DNA from: a virus
Taxonomy: Duplodnaviria; Caudoviricetes
Length of the DNA: 43,428 bases
IMG/VR virus record: IMGVR_UViG_3300017766_001361
Span: 1 to 43,428 of that record
Direction: 5' to 3' (one strand)
Position numbers and translations under genes: made by a program. The stretch's first letter is position 1; every line of letters starts with the position of its first letter. Below are positions 6,377-43,287 of the stretch, piece by piece. Under the pieces are notes generated by a model, which saw nothing but the letters and a program-made list of their open reading frames with translations, searched no databases and was not told the DNA's origin.

Positions 6377-6643
6377 ATGATTCTTAATTTCGAGCACAAG
6401 ACGCCAGCTAATTTTTACGATGGGTTGGTAAAGGTAGATGAAAACGAGGCAGCAATAAAGAAGTGGGGAATGGTTGTTATTGACTTAGACTCCCTGCCCA
6501 AAGATGCAATATTAATTAGCACTAAGGTCATGTTTAGTGCGCTTGAGGCTGGCTATTACCACGAAAGCTCAGGCTATAAAAACGATGAATTCTATTTTGT
6601 AATGGTTCCTAAAAAAGAGGTGATTAATGACAGTAACGATTAA
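6377..6643 (+). CDS. hypothetical protein
   Basis: 88-aa ORF tightly packed in the operon. Confidence 0.6.
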   Translation: MILNFEHKTPANFYDGLVKVDENEAAIKKWGMVVIDLDSLPKDAILISTKVMFSALEAGYYHESSGYKNDEFYFVMVPKKEVINDSND

Positions 6644-7010
6644 AGCAGCAGGCCATAAGCTACTGATTGAGCCTGTAAAGGTAAAGACTGTAAGTGCGGG
6701 CGGTATCATTTTAGGAGATGCTGAGCGTGAGAATAAGGCTATTGGTCTTGGTCGTGTTGTTGATATTGGCCCTACTGCTTTTGTTGGTGTGGCAGGTTGT
6801 GATCCTTCAGGGTATCCAACTAATGACCCACGCTACAAGATGGATGCGCACGAAATTTGGGGCGTAAAGGTTGGCGATGTAGTGATTTACAACCGATTCG
6901 CAGGCTTTAACCCAGATGTTCCAGAGTACAAGGACTTTAAATTTATACCTGACATTGAGGTTTCAGGCGTTGCATGCGGAGAGTTTGAAGTAAGCAAATC
7001 AGATTTTTAA
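6627..7010 (+). CDS. groES: GroES-like co-chaperonin
   Basis: IKAAGHKLLIEP..SAGGIIL, GRVVDIGP, VKVGDVVIYNRFAG match the Cpn10 pattern. Confidence 0.85.
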   Translation: MTVTIKAAGHKLLIEPVKVKTVSAGGIILGDAERENKAIGLGRVVDIGPTAFVGVAGCDPSGYPTNDPRYKMDAHEIWGVKVGDVVIYNRFAGFNPDVPEYKDFKFIPDIEVSGVACGEFEVSKSDF

Positions 7011-18103: not shown

Positions 18104-20307
18104 TGGCATCACCTATTCCAATGCCACAAGGTGCCCGCCTACTAGGGCAGCCAACAATGAGCGCGCAGGTTATGCCTACGACTAGCAGTGCATCCTTACC
18201 GTCTCAGCAAACCCCATATCAGTACGCAGGGTATGGAGCAAAGTACGGACTAGACCAAGCGTCTATTGATGCCGACCCAGCTGCTTTCGGTAAATATTTG
18301 CAGGGCGCGCAAGCCGCAACAAGTGCTGGACAAGGCACATTTCTGAATGGCGGGGCTACATCATTGCTTCCTGCTCAGCAAGCGCCACAAACTGGGTTAA
18401 TAGGCCTCGAGCAAGCTTTAATGGCTGGTCAGTCTGGTTATGAGATGGCTTTGAATCAAGGATTATGGCGATCTACCAACACAATCAACCAAGGATTAGC
18501 TCATGGAACTAATACGCTATATGGCGGCGTGAATCAGTCAAACCAAATGCTAAACCAAGGGTTGACGGGTGCTAATAACTCTATTCTTGGCGGTACGACT
18601 GGAGCTGTTAATGCTATAAATCAGGGTTATCAAGGCGCTACAGGTGCGCTTGCTGGGTTTAATCCTAGCTACAATGCTGCACAAGTATCGCCAATTTATG
18701 CGCAGGGTGTGCAGAATGTTAGCGCGCAAAATTTGCAAAATCAGCCACAGATTAATGCACAGTATTTGCAAAATCAGCCACAGATTAATGCACAGTATTT
18801 GCAAAATCAGCCGCAAGTTAATGCTGTAAGTAATAATTACTCTGCGAATACTGGAGTCGGCTCAAATATAACAGACCCACTAAATCAGGGTGCAGCTAAC
18901 TTTCAAGGCATGCTTGGCGGGGGACAGAATGCGGCAAAATTACAGGCCGATTTAACTGGCGCTAATGGTGTTCCTGCCGCAAATGCAGCCAAAGCGGTTC
19001 TTGCAAACTCACCTGCCATGCAATATCAAATGGAGCAAATGCAGCGCGCAACTGAAAGAAGTGCGGCAGCGAAAGGTGGGGCGCTGGGCGGTAATGTTCT
19101 GATGGAGTTACAGCGAAATGCAGGAGGCATAGCCTCGCAAGATTATCAAAACCAATTTAACAATATGAACACAGTCGCCAACCAAGGTATTAATGCCGCG
19201 AATCAAATCGCAGGTTTAAAATCAACTCAGGCGGGTATCGCAGGTAATTTACAGCAGGCAGGTATTGCGGCAGATGCACAAGCCTCTATCGCGAACCAAG
19301 ATGCTGCAATGCGTTCACAGATAGCTAACCAACAAACAGGTTTGCAAACAGGCTTAGCTAACCAGCAAACAGGTATGCAGGCGCAAATTGCCAATCAAAA
19401 CGTAGGACTGCAAGAAAATATAGCCAATCAAGATGCTGGTATGCGAGCGCAAATTGCCAATCAAAACGTAGGACTGCAAGAAAATATAGCCAATCAAGAT
19501 GCTGGTATGCGAGCGCAAATTGCCAATCAAAACGCAGGATTGCAGACAGGCATGGCAAACCAGCAGGCGGGAATGCAGGCAGGAATAGCAAACCAAACAG
19601 CTGCTAATCAGCAACAAATGTTCACGCAAGAGCAGAAGATAAATATTGCCAGCAAGCTGGCTGATCTTTCAAATATGTACGGTATTAACACGGGCAGCCT
19701 GTTATCGAGCACTGGCAATTTATTGGGCTCGAATCAGCTTAATGTTGTCGGAGCGCAAGCGGGTAACGTATTGGGCGCGGCTGGTAATGTGGCGCAAGCA
19801 CAATTAGGCGCAGCTGATGCTATTGCTAACAACCAGCTAGGCACTAGTCAAATACTTGGCCAGTCTCGCTATACTACTGGCACTAACTTAGCGTCTGGCA
19901 GAACAGCGGCGGGTAATGCTATTGCTCAGAATGCAAGTAACGCGGCTACTAACATCGGTAATCTGTTATCTCAGCAAGGCTTGAATATTTCTAACGAAAT
20001 GGCTAATGACATAAGCACCACCACAAAGCTGATTTATGACTACGGACTACAGGACAAGATTAGCAATGAAAACCTAGCGGCGATGATTGCAAACATAACC
20101 AGCGGCCAAGCCACGAACACGCAGAACGCTTATGCTAATATAGGCGCAGCAAATGCGGCTGGAACTATGGGTGTTGCGAATGCGCTGCAGGGTGGCTTGC
20201 AGATGGGATTGCAAACTGGCTTATTAGGCGGTACTTCTACACCAGCGGCAAACCCATCGTATAGCGGCTTCAATATTGGCTCAAATCAATACGGTATAAA
20301 ACCATGA
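18103..20307 (+). CDS. DNA ejection/pilot protein with 11-residue repeats
   Basis: Q/N/A/G-rich; SPAMQYQ...ERSAAAKGGALGGN..ELQR motif of pilot proteins. Confidence 0.7.
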   Translation: MASPIPMPQGARLLGQPTMSAQVMPTTSSASLPSQQTPYQYAGYGAKYGLDQASIDADPAAFGKYLQGAQAATSAGQGTFLNGGATSLLPAQQAPQTGLIGLEQALMAGQSGYEMALNQGLWRSTNTINQGLAHGTNTLYGGVNQSNQMLNQGLTGANNSILGGTTGAVNAINQGYQGATGALAGFNPSYNAAQVSPIYAQGVQNVSAQNLQNQPQINAQYLQNQPQINAQYLQNQPQVNAVSNNYSANTGVGSNITDPLNQGAANFQGMLGGGQNAAKLQADLTGANGVPAANAAKAVLANSPAMQYQMEQMQRATERSAAAKGGALGGNVLMELQRNAGGIASQDYQNQFNNMNTVANQGINAANQIAGLKSTQAGIAGNLQQAGIAADAQASIANQDAAMRSQIANQQTGLQTGLANQQTGMQAQIANQNVGLQENIANQDAGMRAQIANQNVGLQENIANQDAGMRAQIANQNAGLQTGMANQQAGMQAGIANQTAANQQQMFTQEQKINIASKLADLSNMYGINTGSLLSSTGNLLGSNQLNVVGAQAGNVLGAAGNVAQAQLGAADAIANNQLGTSQILGQSRYTTGTNLASGRTAAGNAIAQNASNAATNIGNLLSQQGLNISNEMANDISTTTKLIYDYGLQDKISNENLAAMIANITSGQATNTQNAYANIGAANAAGTMGVANALQGGLQMGLQTGLLGGTSTPAANPSYSGFNIGSNQYGIKP
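18731..18812 (+). repeat. 33-bp coding tandem repeat (2.5 copies)
   Basis: ATTTGCAAAATCAGCCACAGATTAATGCACAGT; encodes LQNQPQINAQY. Confidence 0.9.
19381..19534 (+). repeat. 66-bp coding tandem repeat (~2.3 copies)
   Basis: Exact duplication encoding AQIANQNVGLQENIANQDAGMR within a longer degenerate ANQ array. Confidence 0.9.
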
Positions 20308-31710: not shown

Positions 31711-32025
31711 TCACCCCACAATAATAGAAGCCAATACATGCGCCTGTGATTTAATTAATTGATTTACACCGCCGCAAAATTCGCCACGGTTGTACGCCGC
31801 CATAAAGTCGTAATCTGTATCTACAAAAGCCGCAAACTCTTCGAAATCATTTGCTAGCCTTTCTGCCAATGTATACACCCGCCCGTTTTCGCGTATCTCT
31901 AGCCCTTGCAAAAGCATCTTCACGTACAGCTTCCATTTGTAGTGCTCTAGATCATAAGCAGCGCGCTCTTGGGCTGATGTTTGTCTATCGTTGTTTATCT
32001 CTGCAATTCTTACTGCGCATTCCAT
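31711..32025 (-). CDS. hypothetical protein
   Basis: GAGGG RBS; first gene of the leftward operon. Confidence 0.65.
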   Translation of the reverse strand: MECAVRIAEINNDRQTSAQERAAYDLEHYKWKLYVKMLLQGLEIRENGRVYTLAERLANDFEEFAAFVDTDYDFMAAYNRGEFCGGVNQLIKSQAHVLASIIVG

Positions 32026-32176
32026 TTTGTATTCCCTCGGTTGGTTTCGACAAATTCAGATTAACACCAAAAACCAAAAAAACAATAGGTAAAATAAAAT
32101 ATATTTTTAATAAAATGATATTGATTTATGTAATCCAATGCGCTAGAGTTCAATCTCAATACAGCGAGGGCGTTAA
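32026..32176. promoter_or_regulatory. AT-rich divergent promoter region
   Basis: Rightward TTGATT-17-TAGAGT (32121-32149); leftward TTGTTT-16-TAATCT with extended TG. Confidence 0.6.
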
Positions 32177-32389
32177 ATGAAATCAAGATGCACTAAAGAG
32201 GAATTGCTAAAACACATTCGAGCACAGATACGGCGCGAATATGAAAGCCAAGTTGAGGCTGCTAATGATATGAATCAGTCTCCACCATATTTAAATATGG
32301 CTTTAAATGGAAAGCTGAAGGAAATACCAGGCTGGCTAATTGAGCGGTTCGGCTACAGAAAAACGGTTGTTTATGAGCGGGTTAAGTAA
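32177..32389 (+). CDS. Cro-like helix-turn-helix protein
   Basis: SQVEAANDMNQSPPYLNMALNGK HTH pattern; first gene of the rightward operon. Confidence 0.7.
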   Translation: MKSRCTKEELLKHIRAQIRREYESQVEAANDMNQSPPYLNMALNGKLKEIPGWLIERFGYRKTVVYERVK

Positions 32390-32468
32390 CGACGCCTTTT
32401 AACTCGGCGTTTAACTAATGAAAATTTAACCGACTTACAAGCCGTCCTTTTTGAACAACTTGTTACAT
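32384..32468 (-). repeat. attC-like site 1 (degenerate left arm)
   Basis: AAGTAAC...CGGC...GCCG..TTGAAC-AACTT-GTTACAT; L-box pairing poor. Confidence 0.65.
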
Positions 32469-32492
32469 TTACTTTTTGCCGATGGGGGCGAT

Positions 32493-32789
32493 ATGAATTT
32501 ATTGAAAGAAACAAAAGAGCTTTTGGAGGAAAAAGGGAAGACCATATTTGACGTTTTATGGATTGGAACCAAAGACGCTGTTTGGGATGTTGATATTCAA
32601 CAGTTATTTAATGTTGATTACGATGATGGATTTGGAGTCCAAGAAATACCCGACGAGCTTATTGTTGTGGGCGAGGATTGGTGGCTAGAGCGCCATGAGT
32701 ACGATGGTTCTGAGTGGTGGGAATTTAATACAATGCCAGTTAAGCCAACCGCTATTAAGCAAGGCGCTAATTTATTGCAGCGCTGGTAG
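32493..32789 (+). CDS. cassette 1: conserved acidic phage protein
   Basis: GGGGG RBS; YDDGFG.QE...LIVVGEDWWLERHEYDGSEWWEF. Confidence 0.75.
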   Translation: MNLLKETKELLEEKGKTIFDVLWIGTKDAVWDVDIQQLFNVDYDDGFGVQEIPDELIVVGEDWWLERHEYDGSEWWEFNTMPVKPTAIKQGANLLQRW

Positions 32790-32792
32790 TGA

Positions 32793-32880
32793 ATGTAACG
32801 CCCATGTACAGCCGCGCCAACGCCGTACTAATTAAAAACCACGGCCTATGCAGCGTCGGTGCTGCTACGCCTTGTTATGA
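32793..32880 (-). repeat. attC-like site 2
   Basis: ATGTAAC-GCCCAT-GTACAGC ... GCTGCTAC-GCCTT-GTTATGA. Confidence 0.9.
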
Positions 32881-32899
32881 CCAATTACCGGAGTGAGAT

Positions 32900-33100
32900 A
32901 TGGATACAAGACAATTTATAGAAACCCTTTGCGAAGACGGTTTTGACAACAATTCCATTATTGATTTTGTAAATACAAAGCAGGCGAGAATTGACGAGCT
33001 TGAATATGCGCTAAGTGTTTGCATGTGTGTACACGATGACGCTGAAAATATGACAGGCGCACAGCGTCACGCATTGGCGATGAAGGTTTTAGACTGCTAG
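32900..33100 (+). CDS. cassette 2: hypothetical protein
   Basis: GGAG RBS; fills the cassette. Confidence 0.7.
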   Translation: MDTRQFIETLCEDGFDNNSIIDFVNTKQARIDELEYALSVCMCVHDDAENMTGAQRHALAMKVLDC

Positions 33101-33184
33101 TCATAACGCCAAGTTCAGCCCGTGGCGGGGAGTAGAGATTAAATGGCCGATTCTAGCACCATCGGCTGCAACTTTTTGTTATGT
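33101..33184 (-). repeat. attC-like site 3
   Basis: TCATAAC-GCCAA-GTTCAGC ... GCTGCAAC-TTTTT-GTTATGT. Confidence 0.92.
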
Positions 33185-33210
33185 GCAACTGTGCTTGCGA
33201 GGATTTAGAA

Positions 33211-33375
33211 ATGTGGTGCTGTTACTTCAAAGATGGAGAGCTGATAGTTTCAAGCTTGCGCGGAACACAGAAAGGAAGCCAAACTGCAGTTGTTAAAAAG
33301 CTAGGCTTTCAAAGCTGGAAGAATGCGAAAGATCACGGGATAAGATGTTACGAGGTTGAAGTAAAAAAGTGTTGA
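33211..33375 (+). CDS. cassette 3: hypothetical protein (54 aa)
   Basis: GAGGA RBS before ATG 33211. Confidence 0.65.
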   Translation: MWCCYFKDGELIVSSLRGTQKGSQTAVVKKLGFQSWKNAKDHGIRCYEVEVKKC

Positions 33376-33383
33376 TGCGACAC

Positions 33384-33470
33384 ACATAACACCCATGTTC
33401 AGCGGCGGCGTTTTACAAATTGAGCAGTGCGTGACTCTAACACCGTCCGTGCTGGAACTCCTTGTTATGA
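33384..33470 (-). repeat. attC-like site 4
   Basis: ACATAAC-ACCCAT-GTTCAGC ... GCTGGAAC-TCCTT-GTTATGA. Confidence 0.9.
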
Positions 33471-33496
33471 CCAATCAATCGAAGCGAGGTAGTGGT

Positions 33497-33664
33497 ATGC
33501 GAGTTTCAGTCAGGCAAGAAAAAGATGGCTGCTGGTATGTGATAGACGAAAAAGGCGTGCGCTATTCTCAGTGTGGCCGATGGTCAACAGCAGAGCTTGC
33601 GCAAGAGGAAGCTAGAAAATTCTTGAACTCACTAGGTTATAAGAACTGTGAGCCACAGTCATAA
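33497..33664 (+). CDS. cassette 4: hypothetical protein (55 aa)
   Basis: GAGGT RBS before ATG 33497; stop codon lies in the TAAC core. Confidence 0.65.
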   Translation: MRVSVRQEKDGCWYVIDEKGVRYSQCGRWSTAELAQEEARKFLNSLGYKNCEPQS

Positions 33665-33746
33665 CGCCCATGTTCAGCGGTGCCCTTGGGGATAGAAATT
33701 AAATACGCAACGCTAGCAGCATCCGCGTTGTAACTGCTTGTTATGT
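33659..33746 (-). repeat. attC-like site 5
   Basis: TCATAAC-GCCCAT-GTTCAGC ... GTTGTAAC-TGCTT-GTTATGT. Confidence 0.9.
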
Positions 33747-33757
33747 GAGGTGACGAA

Positions 33758-34450
33758 GTGGAATTTTGGAAGGATATTACAGGCTTTGAAGGCTTTTATA
33801 AGGTTTCAAATACAGGGAAAGTTTCGTCTTGCGATAGACAAAAAGAACAGCACGGAAGAAAAAGAACGGGCCGCGAATTAAGGCTGGAACAAAACAAAGC
33901 AGGCCAAGAGAGCGTATGCCTAATGGCTTATGGAGAAAAGAAAAAGGTTCTGGTGTCAAGAATTGTGGCGTCTGAATTTATTAGACCTTTGAAAAAAGGT
34001 GAATCTGTATTTCATTTAGATTTAGTAAAATTCAACAATAATGTAGATAATTTAATTATTTTGAAGAGTGGTAAAGATGTTATGGAGCTTGTAAATAAAT
34101 CTCTTTGCGATGGCTTTGAGAAAATAAGCAGGGATCAAATAACTGTTGAGAAAGTTAAGGAGTATTTATTTTATTTAGATGGCGATCTCTATTTTAAAAA
34201 GAGAACCGCATTAACGGTAAAGGTTGGTGAAAAATCAGGTTTTGCGCAAGAGGGGCACTGGAAAATACATTTGTGCGGTGAGACTTATATGAGAAATTGG
34301 CTTATATATTTTTTACACACGGGCGAGCGCAATGATTATGTCTTGCCTAAAAACGGTGATTTTATGGATGGAAGGGTTGAAAATTTATATTCGGTAAGCG
34401 CAAGCGAATATGCGAAAATCACAGACAGGGTGCAAAACATTCACACATAA
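33758..34450 (+). CDS. cassette 5: NUMOD4-domain protein with degenerate HNH-like motifs
   Basis: WKDITGFEGFYKVSNTGKV (NUMOD4); VFHLDLVKFNNNVDNL and PKNGDFMDGRVENL; GAGGTG RBS. Confidence 0.8.
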   Translation: MEFWKDITGFEGFYKVSNTGKVSSCDRQKEQHGRKRTGRELRLEQNKAGQESVCLMAYGEKKKVLVSRIVASEFIRPLKKGESVFHLDLVKFNNNVDNLIILKSGKDVMELVNKSLCDGFEKISRDQITVEKVKEYLFYLDGDLYFKKRTALTVKVGEKSGFAQEGHWKIHLCGETYMRNWLIYFLHTGERNDYVLPKNGDFMDGRVENLYSVSASEYAKITDRVQNIHT

Positions 34451-34578
34451 CGCCCATGTTCAGCGGCAGGATTTAAGGCGAATTTTTATGGAATACTTTG
34501 CGAAGCAAACCATAAAAAGGCGACTTAAAGACTGTCCAACGTAGCGCAGCGGAGTGGTGCTGCAACGACTTGTTACAA
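34445..34578 (-). repeat. attC-like site 6 (long, 134 bp)
   Basis: ACATAAC-GCCCAT-GTTCAGC..TTTAAG..TTTTTATGG/CCATAAAAA..CTTAAA..GCTGCAAC-GACTT-GTTACAA. Confidence 0.9.
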
Positions 34579-34648
34579 ATGTTTTACAGCAAAAAACTTA
34601 GACAAAAACGGCTTTTAATTTTTTAACTTTAATACAAAGAGGTTTTCT

Positions 34649-34807
34649 ATGAATTTAACAGACAGAACTAAGCTCGTCCTTGAACTAATGAAAGTAAAGC
34701 CTTCGCTAACAGCTGAGAAAGCTGCCGAAGAAATTATTTTGATTCAGAAATTGCTTGTGAAGCAGGGGTTCCTTGCACGACTTTTAAGCAAGCTTCATAC
34801 AGCTTAA
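34649..34807 (+). CDS. cassette 6: small ORF a (52 aa, absent from ORF track)
   Basis: AGAGG RBS; MNLTDRTKLVLELMKVKPSLTAEKAAEEIILIQKLLVKQGFLARLLSKLHTA. Confidence 0.55.
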   Translation: MNLTDRTKLVLELMKVKPSLTAEKAAEEIILIQKLLVKQGFLARLLSKLHTA

Positions 34808-34904
34808 GTCTTTCTAAGTTGGTGCCATTGCCATAATCACAGTTACGGTACAGCTTGTAAGCGACTTCTTCTTTTGAGTTAATTTCAAGATTTGCATCTG
34901 ACAT
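34734..34904 (-). CDS. cassette 6: small ORF b (56 aa, absent from ORF track)
   Basis: AAGGAG RBS; MSDANLEINSKEEVAYKLYRNCDYGNGTNLERLKLYEACLKVVQGTPASQAISESK. Confidence 0.6.
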   Translation of the reverse strand: MSDANLEINSKEEVAYKLYRNCDYGNGTNLERLKLYEACLKVVQGTPASQAISESK

Positions 34905-34943
34905 TGGTACTTCTCCTTTGGTGATGTGCTAATTGCACTGACT

Positions 34944-35029
34944 TTGTAACGCTTAGCGCAAATGCGCGCTGGGAGTAAGAGTTAAAAACCGATATTTAAA
35001 CCGCGTCATTTTGACGCTACTTGTTACAT
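34944..35029 (-). repeat. attC-like site 7
   Basis: TTGTAAC..AGCGCAAATG-CGCG ... CGCG-T-CATTTTG-A-CGCT-ACTT-GTTACAT. Confidence 0.85.
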
Positions 35030-35058
35030 TTACTTTTAACTACAAGGCGTTTACTAAA

Positions 35059-35232
35059 ATGGCAGAACAAACAGAAGTAATCATTCGGGCAAACTCAACT
35101 ATAAAATTGAAAACTCCAAGCGGAATGACTAGCACTTGGACTTACGTAAAAGGCACAACGGCAAAGGCTATGCTGGACGATATTGCGCGCTCACTTGGCT
35201 ACGAAGTTGTGCCGAAAGTTAAAAGCCAGTGA
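35059..35232 (+). CDS. cassette 7: hypothetical protein (57 aa)
   Basis: ATG 35059; fills the cassette. Confidence 0.6.
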   Translation: MAEQTEVIIRANSTIKLKTPSGMTSTWTYVKGTTAKAMLDDIARSLGYEVVPKVKSQ

Positions 35233-35396
35233 ATGTAACAGCGGAATCAAAGGGCCACCCATTAAAACTCCGACATTTAGACGACAAGCATCATTGATTT
35301 TATTTGAGTTTTTCAGTGTGTTTGTAGTTTTACGGCCTAGGCCGCAATTCCACAAAATCAGCACCAATACGGTGCTTTGAACTAAATAGGTGCAGA
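35233..35396 (-). other. attI-like terminal element, copy A
   Basis: Single core (GTTACAT on minus strand), no closing attC arm; homologous to 42866-43029. Confidence 0.65.
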
Positions 35397-35636
35397 ATGA
35401 CCGACTTATGCAAACGATTAAGCGAGGCTACTGATTTACGTTTTCGCGTTGACGATGACACTTGCGAGCCTGCTGCTAGCGGTGCGGCTTTATATTACTG
35501 GCTAACTAGCTACAAAGATGGCTATCACCTTGTGGCTAATTCGATATATGACGAAGTGTTTGATGGCCATGTGGGGGGTGAATCTGATTTGATCGCGAAG
35601 ATCAACGAGTTAGAAAACGAATTCCGTCATGTATAG
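35397..35636 (+). CDS. hypothetical protein
   Basis: AGGTG RBS; 79 aa. Confidence 0.6.
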   Translation: MTDLCKRLSEATDLRFRVDDDTCEPAASGAALYYWLTSYKDGYHLVANSIYDEVFDGHVGGESDLIAKINELENEFRHV

Positions 35637-38417: not shown

Positions 38418-38630
38418 ATGAAACAACTAAGCACTTTCAGCGATAAGGAGAATTACTGGATTACGTTCATAGGACTTAGAAAGCAAATAGGGATATTGGA
38501 TAAATCACTTGCCATTGAGCTAGGAATAAGCACAAGGGCATTAACTGAGCGAGTATGTGGAAGGGCTGAGATTAAGCGCGAAACATTGCTGGCTATGGAA
38601 TATTTAATATTAAAAAAGGCACAGATATGA
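38418..38630 (+). CDS. small HTH DNA-binding protein
   Basis: LRKQIG....LAIELGISTRAL. Confidence 0.65.
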   Translation: MKQLSTFSDKENYWITFIGLRKQIGILDKSLAIELGISTRALTERVCGRAEIKRETLLAMEYLILKKAQI

Positions 38631-40030
38631 CTTTAACAACTGATATGTTCAAAAATGAAGGCGCTATTGAATTTGAAAATGTTGCTAGCGTGATTGGATC
38701 AGGCTATGAAAATGATGTTGCTGTACTGGCTATCGAAGACAAAATAGCTTACCGCGCAGCCCGTAAAAATATGCAAATACACTCTGCAATTATTTTAAAA
38801 GTGATGGGGGTGGTTTCTGGTTTCTTTACTTATCAAATTAACCATGACGCGCGTGAGTTTTGTTTGTTGCAATCAACTATTCGACCAGAAGTGTTTGATT
38901 TTGATTTGTACAAGGCAATGGTACAAAAGATTATCGAAAACAACACCTACGGCTATCCAATGTTTATTACCACAAACCCAAAAAGTAAATTTGAAACGCC
39001 AAAGTTATTTGAAAGCATTGGGTTTACAACGTACCTAGAAATGTCTGGTTATGCCTACATGGTTTACGGAGATATGGGCGATGCGCGGTTAAAGTATTTG
39101 GCACATATAACAATGTGTAATGTATGGAATTCAATTAGCGGGAAATGGTTAAAGGTTAAGCGCGAATGGAACGAAAAAATTGAAGCTGCTGGCGCTAAGC
39201 ATAATATTCCTAATCCTAAATTTGCCTCGCGTGATGGATGCTGGCAGGGAACAAATGGTTATTCTAATGTAGTTCTTGGGTCTCATGAAATAAATGAAGA
39301 CGGCGAAGTAGTACACAAGGTAGGAAAATCATTCAATGGTAATGCCTCTGTGCTTGACCCTGTCGCATGCGAAGTAATCTTGCGGTTCTTTATGCCTACT
39401 GACGGTAGCTTTGTTTACAACCCGTTTGGCGGCGGCGTACAAATGGGGTTTGTGACTGGAGACTATGGATACAAATATATTTCTAGCGAAATTAGACAAA
39501 ATCAGTGTGATGCTAATAACGCAATATGCCAAGACTTGAAAGGTAGCGCAAAGTGGATTAAAAGCGATAGCTCTGAATACGTGCCAGACGAGCGACCAGA
39601 TTTGGTTTTCACGTGCCCTCCATACTATAAAGTTGAAGAATATCTTGATTATGACGGCAATCCTCCAGAGGGCGAGCTTAACTCATTTCCAACTTATCAA
39701 GAGTTTAGAGATACGCTTTTCAAAGGGTACAAAAAAGCAATTGACGCGCTAAAAGATGATAGTTTTTTTGTTGTGATGACTGGTGATAGTCGTGATAAAA
39801 ATGGCGCTTATTATTGCTGTGAGTCAGAACATGAATTGTTTTTCCGTGACAATGGGTTACACGTTTACAATAAAATTGTTTATTTAGAGTGTGAATTTAC
39901 CCGATTAGCCCATGCAAAAAAGACTTTAAACTATCGCAAGTTTCCAAAGCGTGAACAAAAAATTATTGTCGCTTACAAAGGTGATATGTCAAAGATTAAA
40001 GACCGTTTCCCAACTGTAGGGCGTTTATAA
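38627..40030 (+). CDS. SAM-dependent amino-(N6A/N4C) DNA methyltransferase with GNAT-like N-terminal domain
   Basis: SVLDPVACE, YNPFGGG (motif I), SEIRQNQ, FTCPPYY (motif IV); N-terminal ~140 aa ends in LFESIGF. Confidence 0.8.
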   Translation: MTLTTDMFKNEGAIEFENVASVIGSGYENDVAVLAIEDKIAYRAARKNMQIHSAIILKVMGVVSGFFTYQINHDAREFCLLQSTIRPEVFDFDLYKAMVQKIIENNTYGYPMFITTNPKSKFETPKLFESIGFTTYLEMSGYAYMVYGDMGDARLKYLAHITMCNVWNSISGKWLKVKREWNEKIEAAGAKHNIPNPKFASRDGCWQGTNGYSNVVLGSHEINEDGEVVHKVGKSFNGNASVLDPVACEVILRFFMPTDGSFVYNPFGGGVQMGFVTGDYGYKYISSEIRQNQCDANNAICQDLKGSAKWIKSDSSEYVPDERPDLVFTCPPYYKVEEYLDYDGNPPEGELNSFPTYQEFRDTLFKGYKKAIDALKDDSFFVVMTGDSRDKNGAYYCCESEHELFFRDNGLHVYNKIVYLECEFTRLAHAKKTLNYRKFPKREQKIIVAYKGDMSKIKDRFPTVGRL

Positions 40031-40031
40031 A

Positions 40032-40868
40032 ATGGGTGCTTATGGTCATCAAATAACACTGAGTAAAAACTCTCGTGGCATTTATAGTATTGACCCGATA
40101 ATGGGCTGCGAAAGCGGCCTGTTACGAAATCCTAAAGGCTGTTACGGCGAGTGCTACGCTGCATCATATGCAAAGCGCTACGGGTATGACTTTGGTAAAA
40201 ATGTTAGGCGTTATTTTGATAGTGATAGCCATGCTGCAATGATTCGCAGAAAGATAAACCGTATAGAAATGCCTTTTGTTCGCATGGGCACTAGCGGCGA
40301 TCCTTCTGAGGATTGGGAGCATACTCTTTATGTTTTGAGCAAGCTGTACGGTATAACCAAGGAAGTAGTTATTATTACAAAGCACTGGTACAACTTAACT
40401 GATACGCAGTTGCAAACATTATCGGCGTACAACGTGTGTATAAATACTTCAGTATCAGCCCTTGATTATCCCGACACGTTAGAAAATGCGCTTGAACAAT
40501 ACGAAAGGGTAAAGCCTTATTGTAAAAGCGTTTTGAGGGTAGTTAGTTGTGAGTTTAATTTGGAAAATAAAGAGGCTAAAAGATTAAACGATATACAAGA
40601 AAAACTATTATCGGTTGAGGGTTATATTGATACTGTATTGAGAATATCGAAATCTAATGAGTTGGTATCAAATGGTATAGTAAAAATAAATGACTTGAAG
40701 TTTTTAGGAAAAAAAATTACTGCAAGCAAAAGAAATAAAAGCACTTATTTTGGTAAGTGCGCAAGCTGTAAAGAAATGTGTGGCTTAAATACTGGCGATA
40801 AAATAGAGCACAAGTTTAAGCCGAATCCTAAGCAATATGAACTTATAAAAACAAAAGCCATTCGATAG
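40032..40868 (+). CDS. radical-SAM-like Fe-S protein (SPL/DUF5131-like)
   Basis: DPIMGC..x9..GCYGECYA, VRMGTSGDP, IITKHW, INTSVSALD, C-terminal C..C...C. Confidence 0.7.
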   Translation: MGAYGHQITLSKNSRGIYSIDPIMGCESGLLRNPKGCYGECYAASYAKRYGYDFGKNVRRYFDSDSHAAMIRRKINRIEMPFVRMGTSGDPSEDWEHTLYVLSKLYGITKEVVIITKHWYNLTDTQLQTLSAYNVCINTSVSALDYPDTLENALEQYERVKPYCKSVLRVVSCEFNLENKEAKRLNDIQEKLLSVEGYIDTVLRISKSNELVSNGIVKINDLKFLGKKITASKRNKSTYFGKCASCKEMCGLNTGDKIEHKFKPNPKQYELIKTKAIR

Positions 40869-40927
40869 TAAAGAAATGTTAAACCAAGTTACAAACTATA
40901 AATAAAGAACGATAATAGGAGCTAATC

Positions 40928-41197
40928 ATGTACGTAGATTTAAATACACAGTTCAAAATTAGAAACAAGGTAACAGGCGAGATTAAGACCGCATACCAAG
41001 GCCACAAGTTGTGGTTAATCGTAGATGAGAAAGGGGTTGAGATAATGGCAGATTGGGAAGTATGCGAAGATGTAGGCGTGTTCAAATCAATCACAGCGCT
41101 TTCGTCTATATTTTTTATTGCAGGGTTCATTTACTGGGTTTGTTTTTCTGAGTCGTTTTATTTGCGAGTTTTAAGTTTATGTGATGTTTGTAGTTAA
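40928..41197 (+). CDS. hypothetical protein with C-terminal TM segment
   Basis: AGGAG RBS; stop codon lies in the TAAC core of attC-like site 8. Confidence 0.6.
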   Translation: MYVDLNTQFKIRNKVTGEIKTAYQGHKLWLIVDEKGVEIMADWEVCEDVGVFKSITALSSIFFIAGFIYWVCFSESFYLRVLSLCDVCS

Positions 41198-41275
41198 CGC
41201 CGTTATAAACGGTGCGCAGTACGAAAATTAATAATGCGGTGTTCTATCCGCATCCGTTTGATGACTTTGTTACAC
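41192..41275 (-). repeat. attC-like site 8
   Basis: AGTTAAC-GCCGT-TATAAAC-GG-TGCG ... CGCA-T-CC-GTTTGATG-ACTTT-GTTACAC. Confidence 0.9.
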
Positions 41276-41298
41276 AAAACTAAACTTGGAGATTTACT

Positions 41299-41712
41299 AT
41301 GTTTGCTTTAATTGAAACTAACAACGCCACCCACATTGCTATTAATATTCCGCTTGATGGCGCAGATAAAACCTTACCAGCTCTTGCTGCAATGCTTGAG
41401 AATAACGCTGTATTTATCCGCAAGGACTATTCAAGCTGCCAAAGTGTTACACCAAAAATGAGTTTTATTTTAGGCGATAAAGTTCCTTTTGACACCTACG
41501 AAACGGAACTTGTAATTCAAAAATCAAGTTGCGCAATAGGTGAAGATTTTGTAGTTGAGTCACCCGATGTGATTGTCAGTAACGCAAAAGGTCTAAAAAG
41601 CAAAAGCGAACAAATTACAAAACAGAACACGGAGATTGCATTTTTAAAATCAGAGCTAGAAACACTCAAGGCTAAAATTGCAGAATTAAGCCAAGACACT
41701 GCGCCTGTGTAA
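41299..41712 (+). CDS. cassette 8: hypothetical protein with C-terminal coiled coil
   Basis: GGAG RBS; stop codon in the TAAC core. Confidence 0.75.
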   Translation: MFALIETNNATHIAINIPLDGADKTLPALAAMLENNAVFIRKDYSSCQSVTPKMSFILGDKVPFDTYETELVIQKSSCAIGEDFVVESPDVIVSNAKGLKSKSEQITKQNTEIAFLKSELETLKAKIAELSQDTAPV

Positions 41713-41789
41713 CGCCGTTATAAACGGTGCCAGTACGAAAATTAATAGTGCGGTGTTCTAGCCGCATCCGTTTGATAACCTTGTTAAGT
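41707..41789 (-). repeat. attC-like site 9
   Basis: GTGTAAC-GCCGT-TATAAAC ... GTTTGATA-ACCTT-GTTAAGT; near-identical to site 8. Confidence 0.9.
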
Positions 41790-41802
41790 TTGGTGGCTAC
41801 TT

Positions 41803-42027
41803 GTGAATATGTTTAACGAACACCCTGATTGGGTTGGTATGCCTGAATTTGTGCAGGAAAAGAAATATCCTTACAAAACCCTGATTGTTAGGTTTGAAAC
41901 AGAGCAAGACTATAATGATTTTGCACAATTGATAGGGCAAAAACTAACAAGTAAGACAAAAAGCATATGGCACCCGTTTAAGTCGCATTGTGGATTAGAA
42001 AAAAAGGTGTACAAAAATGCCGACTAG
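41803..42027 (+). CDS. cassette 9: small partner of the glycosyltransferase
   Basis: WVGMPEFVQE...IVRFETEQDY..FAQLIGQKLT.KTKSIWHP; overlaps the next gene. Confidence 0.75.
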   Translation: MNMFNEHPDWVGMPEFVQEKKYPYKTLIVRFETEQDYNDFAQLIGQKLTSKTKSIWHPFKSHCGLEKKVYKNAD

Positions 42028-42871
42028 ATACCCCGTGTATATTGTTTCAAAAGGTAGGTATAAAAACGGACTTACCACAAAAGCGCTTGATGTAATGGGT
42101 GTTAAGCACTTTATAGTTTGTGAAGAATTTGAAGCTGATTTATACCGCGAACACACGAGCGCTGAAATACTGGTTTTACCGCAAGAGTATTTAGATTCTT
42201 ATGATACGTGTGACGATTTTGGAAAAGAAAAAAGCAAAGGCCCAGGGGCTGCTAGGAATTTTTGCATAGACCATAGCGCACAATTCAAGCGCCATTGGGT
42301 TATGGATGATAATTTAGATGCGTTCCATTACCTAAACAGAAACGAAAAATTCGAGGTTGAGTGTGACGGGACGCTGAGGGCCGCTGAAGATTTTGTAGAT
42401 AGGTATTCAAATGTTCCGGTGGCAGGTTTTAATTATTATTCATTCTGCAAAAAGACAGATAAGTTGCCGCCGTTTATTTGTAATACAAGAATATATTCAT
42501 GCCTTCTTATTGAAAATGGCGCTGGCTATAGGTGGCGAGGTAGATACAATGAAGATACAGACCTAAGCTTGCGAATACTAAAAGACGGACTCTGTACAAT
42601 ACAGTTTAATGCGTTTTTGTGCGGGAAGGTTACAACGCAGCGAATGAGCGGCGGTAATACGAAAGAGTTTTATGATGACGAAGGCACATTGCCAAAATCC
42701 GAAATGCTTGCAAAGTTGCACCCAGACGTTGCGAAAGTTGTGTTTAAGTTTGGGCGATGGCACCACCATGTAGATTACAAACCATTCAAAAAAAATAGAC
42801 TTGTTTTGGCGGATAAAGATAAGGTTTATTCTGGTACTGACAACTACGGTATGCGATTGGTTTCAACTTAA
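42017..42871 (+). CDS. cassette 9: GT-A fold glycosyltransferase (TET-associated/GREB1-like)
   Basis: YPVYIVSKGR, GPGAARN, HWVMDDN, RIYSCLLI, WRGRYNEDTDLSLR, TQ...GGN. Confidence 0.75.
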   Translation: MPTRYPVYIVSKGRYKNGLTTKALDVMGVKHFIVCEEFEADLYREHTSAEILVLPQEYLDSYDTCDDFGKEKSKGPGAARNFCIDHSAQFKRHWVMDDNLDAFHYLNRNEKFEVECDGTLRAAEDFVDRYSNVPVAGFNYYSFCKKTDKLPPFICNTRIYSCLLIENGAGYRWRGRYNEDTDLSLRILKDGLCTIQFNAFLCGKVTTQRMSGGNTKEFYDDEGTLPKSEMLAKLHPDVAKVVFKFGRWHHHVDYKPFKKNRLVLADKDKVYSGTDNYGMRLVST

Positions 42872-43029
42872 CAGTTTATTCAACTGGTTGACCCGCGAAA
42901 CTACGACATTTTGACGACAGGCTTCATTGATTTTATTGAAGTTTTTCGGTGTGTTTGTAGTTTTAATGGGTAGGCCGCATTTCCACAAAAATTGAACCAA
43001 AATCGTGCAAAGCACAAAAGAGGTGCAAA
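42866..43029 (-). other. attI-like terminal element, copy B
   Basis: Single core (GTTAAGT on minus strand); homologous to 35233-35396. Confidence 0.65.
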
Positions 43030-43287
43030 TTGACAAATAAACAACTAAAGCCGCGTGATGTATTCGAATGTGAATATATTCACTGGCACATGGCGCAGGA
43101 CGTTTACGCTGATGCAAAGTCAAGCTTGGAGTCATTGCGCAATGGGTTGACGTATGACGATGATGGAGTGCATCGAGCGTTTAATAATTGGATAATGGGG
43201 GTTGATATTTCTCAAGAGCAAGGCAAACACAATAGAATTGGCGACATACACATAGGCGGCGAGATGCTGCCAGAGTTTGAATCATGA
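43030..43287 (+). CDS. hypothetical protein
   Basis: GAGGTG RBS before TTG; ATGA coupling to ninB. Confidence 0.6.
   Translation: MTNKQLKPRDVFECEYIHWHMAQDVYADAKSSLESLRNGLTYDDDGVHRAFNNWIMGVDISQEQGKHNRIGDIHIGGEMLPEFES

Follow-up and report, generated by a model that had tools for sequence, protein, structure and literature searches.

The attachment site described here is found twice in a 43,428-bp stretch of DNA, the window, which is the whole of the virus record IMGVR_UViG_3300017766_001361 from IMG/VR (Duplodnaviria; Caudoviricetes). The element is very probably a phage-borne attI, the primary recombination site of the Cellvibrio integron, present in two copies and likely serving as the entry point for gene cassettes through the host integron integrase (IntI) acting in trans. 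This reading is drawn from sequence: homology and shared register with the host attI, exact junctions between element and cassettes, variable cassettes between fixed flanks, and the finding of no tyrosine recombinase. A six-frame search for PF00589 gave no match in the window genome or in five partial relatives, and the use of host IntI in trans is therefore inferred. The attI homolog heads integrase-free arrays whose genes are reversed, and it likely works as an integron platform, as judged from its sequence, not as a part of a complete integron.

The copies at 35236-35396 and 42869-43029 align without gaps and are identical at 121 of 161 positions, as against 64 of 161 for the next-best match on either strand of the window, and the alignment contains every shared block named in a preliminary description of this DNA, which had proposed two diverged copies of a candidate attI. 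As proposed there, each copy starts at the AAC core that ends an array, with seven attC-like sites (the recombination sites of cassettes) before copy 1 and two before copy 2, and no attC-type partner, that is, no closing arm, was found for this AAC. The leftmost cores of both arrays likewise lack a partner and form the stop codons of the resident genes upstream, and small unrelated open reading frames (ORFs; 35397-35636 and 43030-43287) occupy the place that intI has in the host. In all nine cassettes of the window the 7-mers of the two ends, one with GTT and one with AAC, are exact reverse complements. This holds for both junctions with the element, where, for instance, the left 7-mer of copy 1 is the exact complement of the other core of the last cassette; nine matches were reached in 1 of 100,000 permutations. 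Cores matched within a single site in none of the nine attC sites, and matching between cassette ends instead of within sites is what would be expected if each unit had been a circle opened at AA/C. Three sequence features of an attI are present: an R box with a GTT core, a 5-bp spacer, a degenerate L box and no hairpin partner; a position at the head of an attC array, with a junction that fits the core of the first cassette; and homology to a site beside a cognate intI.

This last point comes from the comparison with hosts. One phage contig is binned in the genome G001, which encodes a typical IntI (TIGR02249, 382 bits; E value of 1e-77 to the solved IntI4). About 220 bp upstream of the intI of G001 lies a site with the first 15 nucleotides of copy 2 followed by a related arm, and the same 15 nucleotides are found upstream of intI in locus L030 and its relatives. 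Among 26 loci whose IntI shares 54% identity or more with the G001 protein, a 40-bp profile built from the phage copies only had its best match on the TAACAG core, 204-342 nucleotides upstream of intI, in 24, and it exceeded the best of 20 shuffles in 19; among more distant intI loci it fell on the core in 4 of 29. Five loci with partial alignments were left out. Member names in two of the three IntI clusters looked up give the host genus as Cellvibrio. A pattern of core plus arm was found in 43 of 64 genomes of the genus and in 1 of 300 other Gammaproteobacteria, with one match for the reversed control. Judged by sequence, the host site behaves as an attI: the adjacent cassette genes point away from intI and the cores match, the first cassette's core agreeing at seven of seven positions in 11 sites, six in three and four in one (15 checkable sites of 45). 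A LexA-type box is located near the start of intI in 13 of 24 loci. The proposal of a landing pad is thus supported by the first ~37 bp of the element, which match the site upstream of Cellvibrio intI in the same orientation relative to attC.

Absence of an adjacent integrase is common among the hosts as well. Genomes of the genus hold up to 12 attI matches each, many of them away from intI, and no IntI homolog was found in 18 regions from four genomes that contain 25 attI sites; on the core side of most of these sites runs a series of genes directed away from the site, and attC sites were found in many. Genome G140 has six attI sites and one intI elsewhere, and the single-contig genome G130 has ten and no intI match. 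Integrase-free platforms look normal in Cellvibrio, and their use in trans by phages is therefore plausible. The solo attI regions are located in G130:C1 (L131-L138), G140:C1 (L143-L148), G150 and G159 (L139-L142), and some of their arrays contain tandem attI-headed units. Two contigs of G001, C55 and C19, were considered as host arrays and rejected, and they were counted as phage because they carry phage-type genes.

Pattern scans gave 19 distinct copies of the element, the two of the window and another 17 elsewhere, of which 11 are in contigs from IMG/VR and six in metagenome or genome assemblies, once duplicates and L019, a match from Marinicella without an array that was treated as chance, were dropped. 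Altogether the element is found in 21 other contigs at various gene positions. The core of the last cassette agrees with the left 7-mer of the element at all seven positions in each of the 17 pattern-found copies that could be checked, two of them those of the window, and the 4-mers at the matching cores are many and different (L024 and L025 are too short for this check). These scans selected on the core, so that further searches were made without it, and they recovered variant elements at array ends in L015, L118, L115 and L117. Starting from the gene to the left of array 2 the search reached L015, and starting from the cro-like gene it reached L118; each of them has the same left junction as in the window, different cassettes and a variant element at the end of the array; the left junction of array 2 is followed by different cassettes in L001/L105 too. 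Among arrays selected by their attC sites, and with enough DNA downstream, L115, L116 and L117 end in attI-like sites. In G002 neither element nor array follows the homologs of genes 35397 and 40928, and in L107 neither precedes the homolog of 35397. Five cassettes recur across different phages with different neighbours, at 81-96% identity. The element without cassettes, the case that would have spoken against a landing pad, was seen in none of the checkable copies.

Within the element the simple sites of the two copies have 11 of 15 positions in common, and the crossover would lie between 35238 and 35239 in copy 1 and between 42871 and 42872 in copy 2. The spacer variant of copy 1 is also present in L102, L103, L024 and L028; copy 2 agrees, by eye, at 10 of 11 positions with the minimal attI2 consensus as printed in PMC12901181. 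The preliminary description had noted imperfect inverted arms, and these are present, although as two of three arm copies (direct, inverted and direct) that start 24, 88 and 106 nucleotides from the core. Arm A is a candidate accessory IntI site: its AAC is at offsets 30-32 in 18 of 19 copies, for which the search patterns selected in part, and a homologous arm stands in the same register in the host attI. In a comparison with DR1 and DR2 of attI1, which are IntI-binding direct repeats of the R box upstream of L, an AAC 29 bp from the core is found in the phage copies and in one host subtype and is absent from the G001 subtype, and one arm is inverted. In the majority of phage copies the spacing from direct to inverted arm measures 62-64 bp, and single copies have 53 and 85 bp; in host loci the inverted arms are located further out, mostly at 83-85 bp. 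The differences amount to roughly one or two helical turns, which would suggest proteins that meet across bent DNA, and the A/T-rich centre is likely the bend site. Half of the consensus for integration host factor (IHF) is found there in 15 of 19 copies and the full consensus in just two of 19, the window copies both having the half site only; the central motif alone is generic, six of seven viral matches lacking the element.

Of the ~160 bp initially assigned to attI, about 120 bp are attI-like. The last ~35 bp hold a separate pair of tandem palindromes, missing in eight of the 19 copies and present in 11, and are probably a regulatory module distinct from attI; four of five window-wide matches lie inside the two elements, and the first palindrome of copy 1 scores as a terminator-like hairpin on the minus strand. 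Over the start of the next gene the palindromes resemble FIS or NtrC-type sites or a phage operator. A consensus scan, which is a weak test, found no sigma-70-like or Pc-like promoter (Pc being the cassette promoter of integrons) in either copy, and neither blastn of the element against GenBank phages nor an Rfam search gave a match.

Table 1. Positions of the attI-like elements, cassette arrays and adjoining genes in the window.
Feature	Position	Strand	Details
attI copy 1, simple site	35233..35251	-	R box 35233-35239; 5-bp spacer; L box 35245-35251
Arm A, copy 1	35260..35272		fixed 24 nt from core start; AAC 29 bp from the AAC of the core
A/T-rich centre, copy 1	35289..35318		half of IHF-type consensus
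Arm B, copy 1	35324..35335		inverted copy of arm A
Arm C, copy 1	35342..35353		direct copy of arm A
Tandem palindromes, copy 1	35361..35393		two, 15 bp, imperfect; reach into ribosome-binding region of next gene
attI copy 2, simple site	42866..42884	-
Accessory region, copy 2	42893..42986		arm A 42893-42905; A/T-rich centre; arm B 42957-42968; arm C 42975-42986
Tandem palindromes, copy 2	42994..43026
Array 1	32390..35238	+	seven cassettes, 32390-32798, 32799-33106, 33107-33389, 33390-33664, 33665-34450, 34451-34949, 34950-35238; genes on +, facing attI
Host-type attC	34449..34574		126 bp
Array 2	41198..42871	+	two cassettes, 41198-41712 and 41713-42871
Resident helix-turn-helix (HTH; cro-like) gene	32177..32389	+	stop codon is left border of array 1
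Resident gene	40928..41197	+	stop codon is left border of array 2

The attC sites were detected with a purpose-built finder. With two attC sites as a minimum and no intI nearby the arrays are attC clusters that lack an integron integrase (CALINs), and without an intI beside attI they are not complete integrons. AAC/GTT cores, paired L boxes and an extra base on the arm opposite AAC (+ strand) are combined in eight of the nine sites of the window, the extra base also being present in 27 of 27 host sites; it is the bottom-strand signature of attC (Nivina et al., PMC5027507). The count of 89 of 89 for phage attC sites is biased by how the sites were found and was not used. Most phage attC sites, 72 of 89, measure 70-79 bp, as against 100-139 bp for most of those in hosts, 22 of 27. 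In the ninth site of the window, at 32388 and first in array 1, a 16-bp inversion in the left arm breaks the hairpin, which may lock in the oldest cassette; the inversion, at 32388-32411, lies between 4-bp inverted repeats. At L001:5806-5835 a collapsed attC, with two cores nearly adjacent, fuses two cassettes. The cargo of array 1 includes an HNH/NUMOD4 gene and a phrog_3972 gene, and cassette 41713-42871 has two ORFs, the second of which is a TAGT-family glycosyltransferase. Unrelated cassette genes share terminal sequences (in the window, L105, L109, L104 and L114), with complementarity often of 10-13 in 14 nucleotides, as if genes had been dropped into a few standard frames.

Gene orientation separates phage from host cassettes. 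The longer ATG-started ORF faces attI in 88 of 98 phage cassette rows, its stop codon being the TAA of the core in 49 (the rows exclude those with a core match below six or an odd length and still include a few duplicate contigs). Host cassette genes face away from attI and intI, opposite to those of the phages, and the phage arrays thus lack the gene orientation, away from attI and Pc, of a complete integron. Inverted insertion by top-strand recombination was considered as the cause of the reversed genes and rejected, because the long attC of the window keeps the orientation to attI of its host homologs; this 126-bp site matches attC repeats in 51 of 64 genomes of the genus, at up to 96% identity. 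Three long cassettes of the host type lie directly at attI in L103:7030-8650, two of them with the longer ORF in host orientation, and one of the cassette genes has homologs in 2 of 201 genomes of the family, the weaker homolog being the only one near an attC. Cassette 34451-34949 may be a similar case: it has a minus-strand ORF of 56 amino acids (34734-34904) in host orientation with a purine-rich leader, for which there is one relative, 77% identical, and a plus-strand ORF of 52 amino acids, the two small ORFs being convergent.

A mechanism can be proposed on these grounds. Host IntI, probably induced by the SOS response, would bind the R and L boxes and recombine the + strand AAC with a folded attC, inserting at AA/C, so that the newest cassette would land beside attI and displace older ones in the direction of the resident gene upstream. 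Accessory binding and bending would be provided by arms A-C and by the A/T-rich centre; in V. cholerae the attIA site requires host factors. As the phage cassettes carry their genes backwards, these would be read by the phage's own rightward transcription; host-type cassettes landing at the phage attI would face against it, as antisense. The platform may have arrived at the stop codons either by secondary-site insertion of an attI-bearing unit or by mosaic exchange among phages. A wider and more tentative view, to which we give slightly less than even weight, is that the phages of Cellvibrio maintain a branch of the host integron for themselves, with a portable integrase-free attI, set behind phage stop codons once or several times, and a phage-specific pool of short-attC, reversed-gene cassettes. 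Orientation would then act as a filter by which phage cassettes are expressed and host ones, often anti-phage, are silenced, and the host would use the same solo-attI design throughout its chromosome.

Several observations weigh against a working phage attI. The empty site for which the preliminary description had suggested a search was seen in no copy, in none of the loci fetched from relatives and in none of the contigs of four sequencing runs covering array 1, although contigs drop rare variants, and the cassettes of the window were found in none of the other phage contigs fetched. The array of L114 has no attI, and those of L110 and L111 end in a different site. By eye, both window copies miss the strict host pattern, and the spacer variant of copy 1 appears in the strict-pattern list on a phage contig only; arm A of G001-type hosts lacks the AAC; and a strict finder located no attC within 1.1 kb at 30 of 45 host sites. 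For the L103 cassette gene, the best homolog in hosts has no attC nearby. Folding energy picks no strand of the window's attC sites, + being more stable in five of nine and - in four, some by larger margins. Finally, the completeness of the record according to CheckV is 71%, which leaves some room for a missed gene. Apart from this, the different site at the array end in L110:5980-6050 and L111 has a full IHF-type consensus and follows the cassettes that L115 also has.

Three other explanations were weighed. The one that survives best, though we consider it unlikely, is that the element is an attI by descent that is now inert, the arrays being varied by homologous recombination between attC sites and by mosaic exchange through Erf, NinB and NinG instead of by IntI. 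The phage encodes all three proteins, attC families differ very little from phage to phage, the 16-bp inversion disrupts the first attC of array 1, and a contig from run X3, which matches 32338-32465 with two differing letters, departs from the window sequence at the right end of the 32388 attC and not at the AAC. Exchange between attC sites would not, however, renew the cassette that touches attI with an exact core, as found in 17 of 17 copies; in L103 host-type cassettes directly adjoin attI; and copies that are no more than 41-86% alike retain the core together with the register and spacing of the arms.

It is less probable still that the element is mainly regulatory for the next gene, comprising an IHF-type site, operators and a translation start, and that cassettes came in through a chance site of the attG type and then by attC x attC recombination. 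IntI does insert cassettes at many genomic attG sites, according to the parts of 10.1101/2022.09.11.507474 consulted; the central motif is common in unrelated viruses, the palindromes overlap the start region of the next gene, and L114 has an array without attI. Conservation, however, begins exactly at the core and matches the host attI, the downstream gene varies among phages and the core does not, and homologs of gene 35397 in G002 and L107 have neither element nor array. Regulation probably accounts for the last 35 bp of the element. Least probable of all is use of the site by a recombinase other than host IntI, such as a Xer-type enzyme from a helper element: the phage arms and spacer do diverge from the host versions in a shared way, but no tyrosine recombinase was found in six phage records and the matching host site adjoins a typical IntI. 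The phage-borne Cellvibrio attI remains the preferred reading.

The phage has genes for terminase, portal, head and lysis proteins, Erf, NinB, NinG and DnaB. Its genome in the window is likely a full circle, as the window ends overlap by five nucleotides and join in frame within ninB (by-eye comparison with L001). The resident gene before array 1 gave a weak match to HTH_37, below the cut-off; a divergent promoter region with this cro-like gene lies at 32025-32177, and no repressor or integrase was found. A GroES-like protein is encoded in the head region (6627-7010), and a gene of the DNA ejection type (18719-19630) contains tandem coding repeats of 33 bp. In 38627-42871 a DNA methyltransferase, a cysteine-rich ORF of no known family and the cassette-borne TAGT glycosyltransferase are close together, possibly as a DNA modification cluster; methyltransferase-like genes are also read among the cassette ORFs of G002 and L108.

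If this reading holds, attC clusters of phages would be no passive relics, but platforms that actively capture genes with the help of a host enzyme, and cassettes would have a physical route along which to pass between phage and chromosome. A phage plugged into the integron system is of direct interest as integron arrays have been reported to be stores of anti-phage genes (10.1101/2024.07.02.601686, 10.1101/2024.07.02.601719, as far as consulted). While attI sites are described as unknown for most integrons (PMC4889954, in the part consulted), one attI is now defined by 19 aligned phage copies and more than 100 host matches, with arms open to mutation. The same part of PMC4889954 calls the origin of cassettes unknown, and the large pool of reversed cassettes with shared ends would offer a handle on how they are made. 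Phage attC clusters are already published; within the open-access literature, to which the search was confined, nothing was found on a conserved phage attI platform, on reversed phage cassettes or on a Cellvibrio attI.

Like the attI of sedentary chromosomal integrons, here that of Cellvibrio, and like attI1 and attI2, the phage element has an R box, a 5-bp spacer and an L box and heads an attC array, and its extra repeated arms recall DR1 and DR2 of attI1. It differs from the chromosomal, class 1 and class 2 sites in having no adjacent intI and no Pc that could be found, in arms arranged as direct, inverted and direct around an A/T-rich centre, in being present twice per phage genome and in cassette genes that face attI. 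Qi et al. (2023; PMC9892861) described CALINs in phages, with phage attC sites that worked with IntI1, and one cryptic Shewanella prophage with a CALIN headed by attI; their main text, as consulted in part, suggests illegitimate acquisition and names neither a conserved attI platform in integrase-free phages nor reversed genes. Unlike in those phage CALINs, the attI here is conserved over 22 contigs and is matched to a host genus. According to the sections consulted of 10.1101/2025.06.18.660453, mobilisation of CALINs in trans is possible. As in attG insertion and SALINs (single attC sites lacking integron integrases; 10.1101/2022.09.11.507474), IntI would be acting away from the integron, and by analogy such secondary-site insertion may explain how the platform was first joined to a stop codon; unlike attG sites, which resemble attI neither in sequence nor in structure, the phage site is homologous to attI, is conserved and has accessory arms. 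The attI-type and delta-attI cassettes reported in PMC12901181, in the part consulted, indicate that pieces of attI can move inside cassette units, and the tandem attI-headed units of Cellvibrio arrays are comparable to them.
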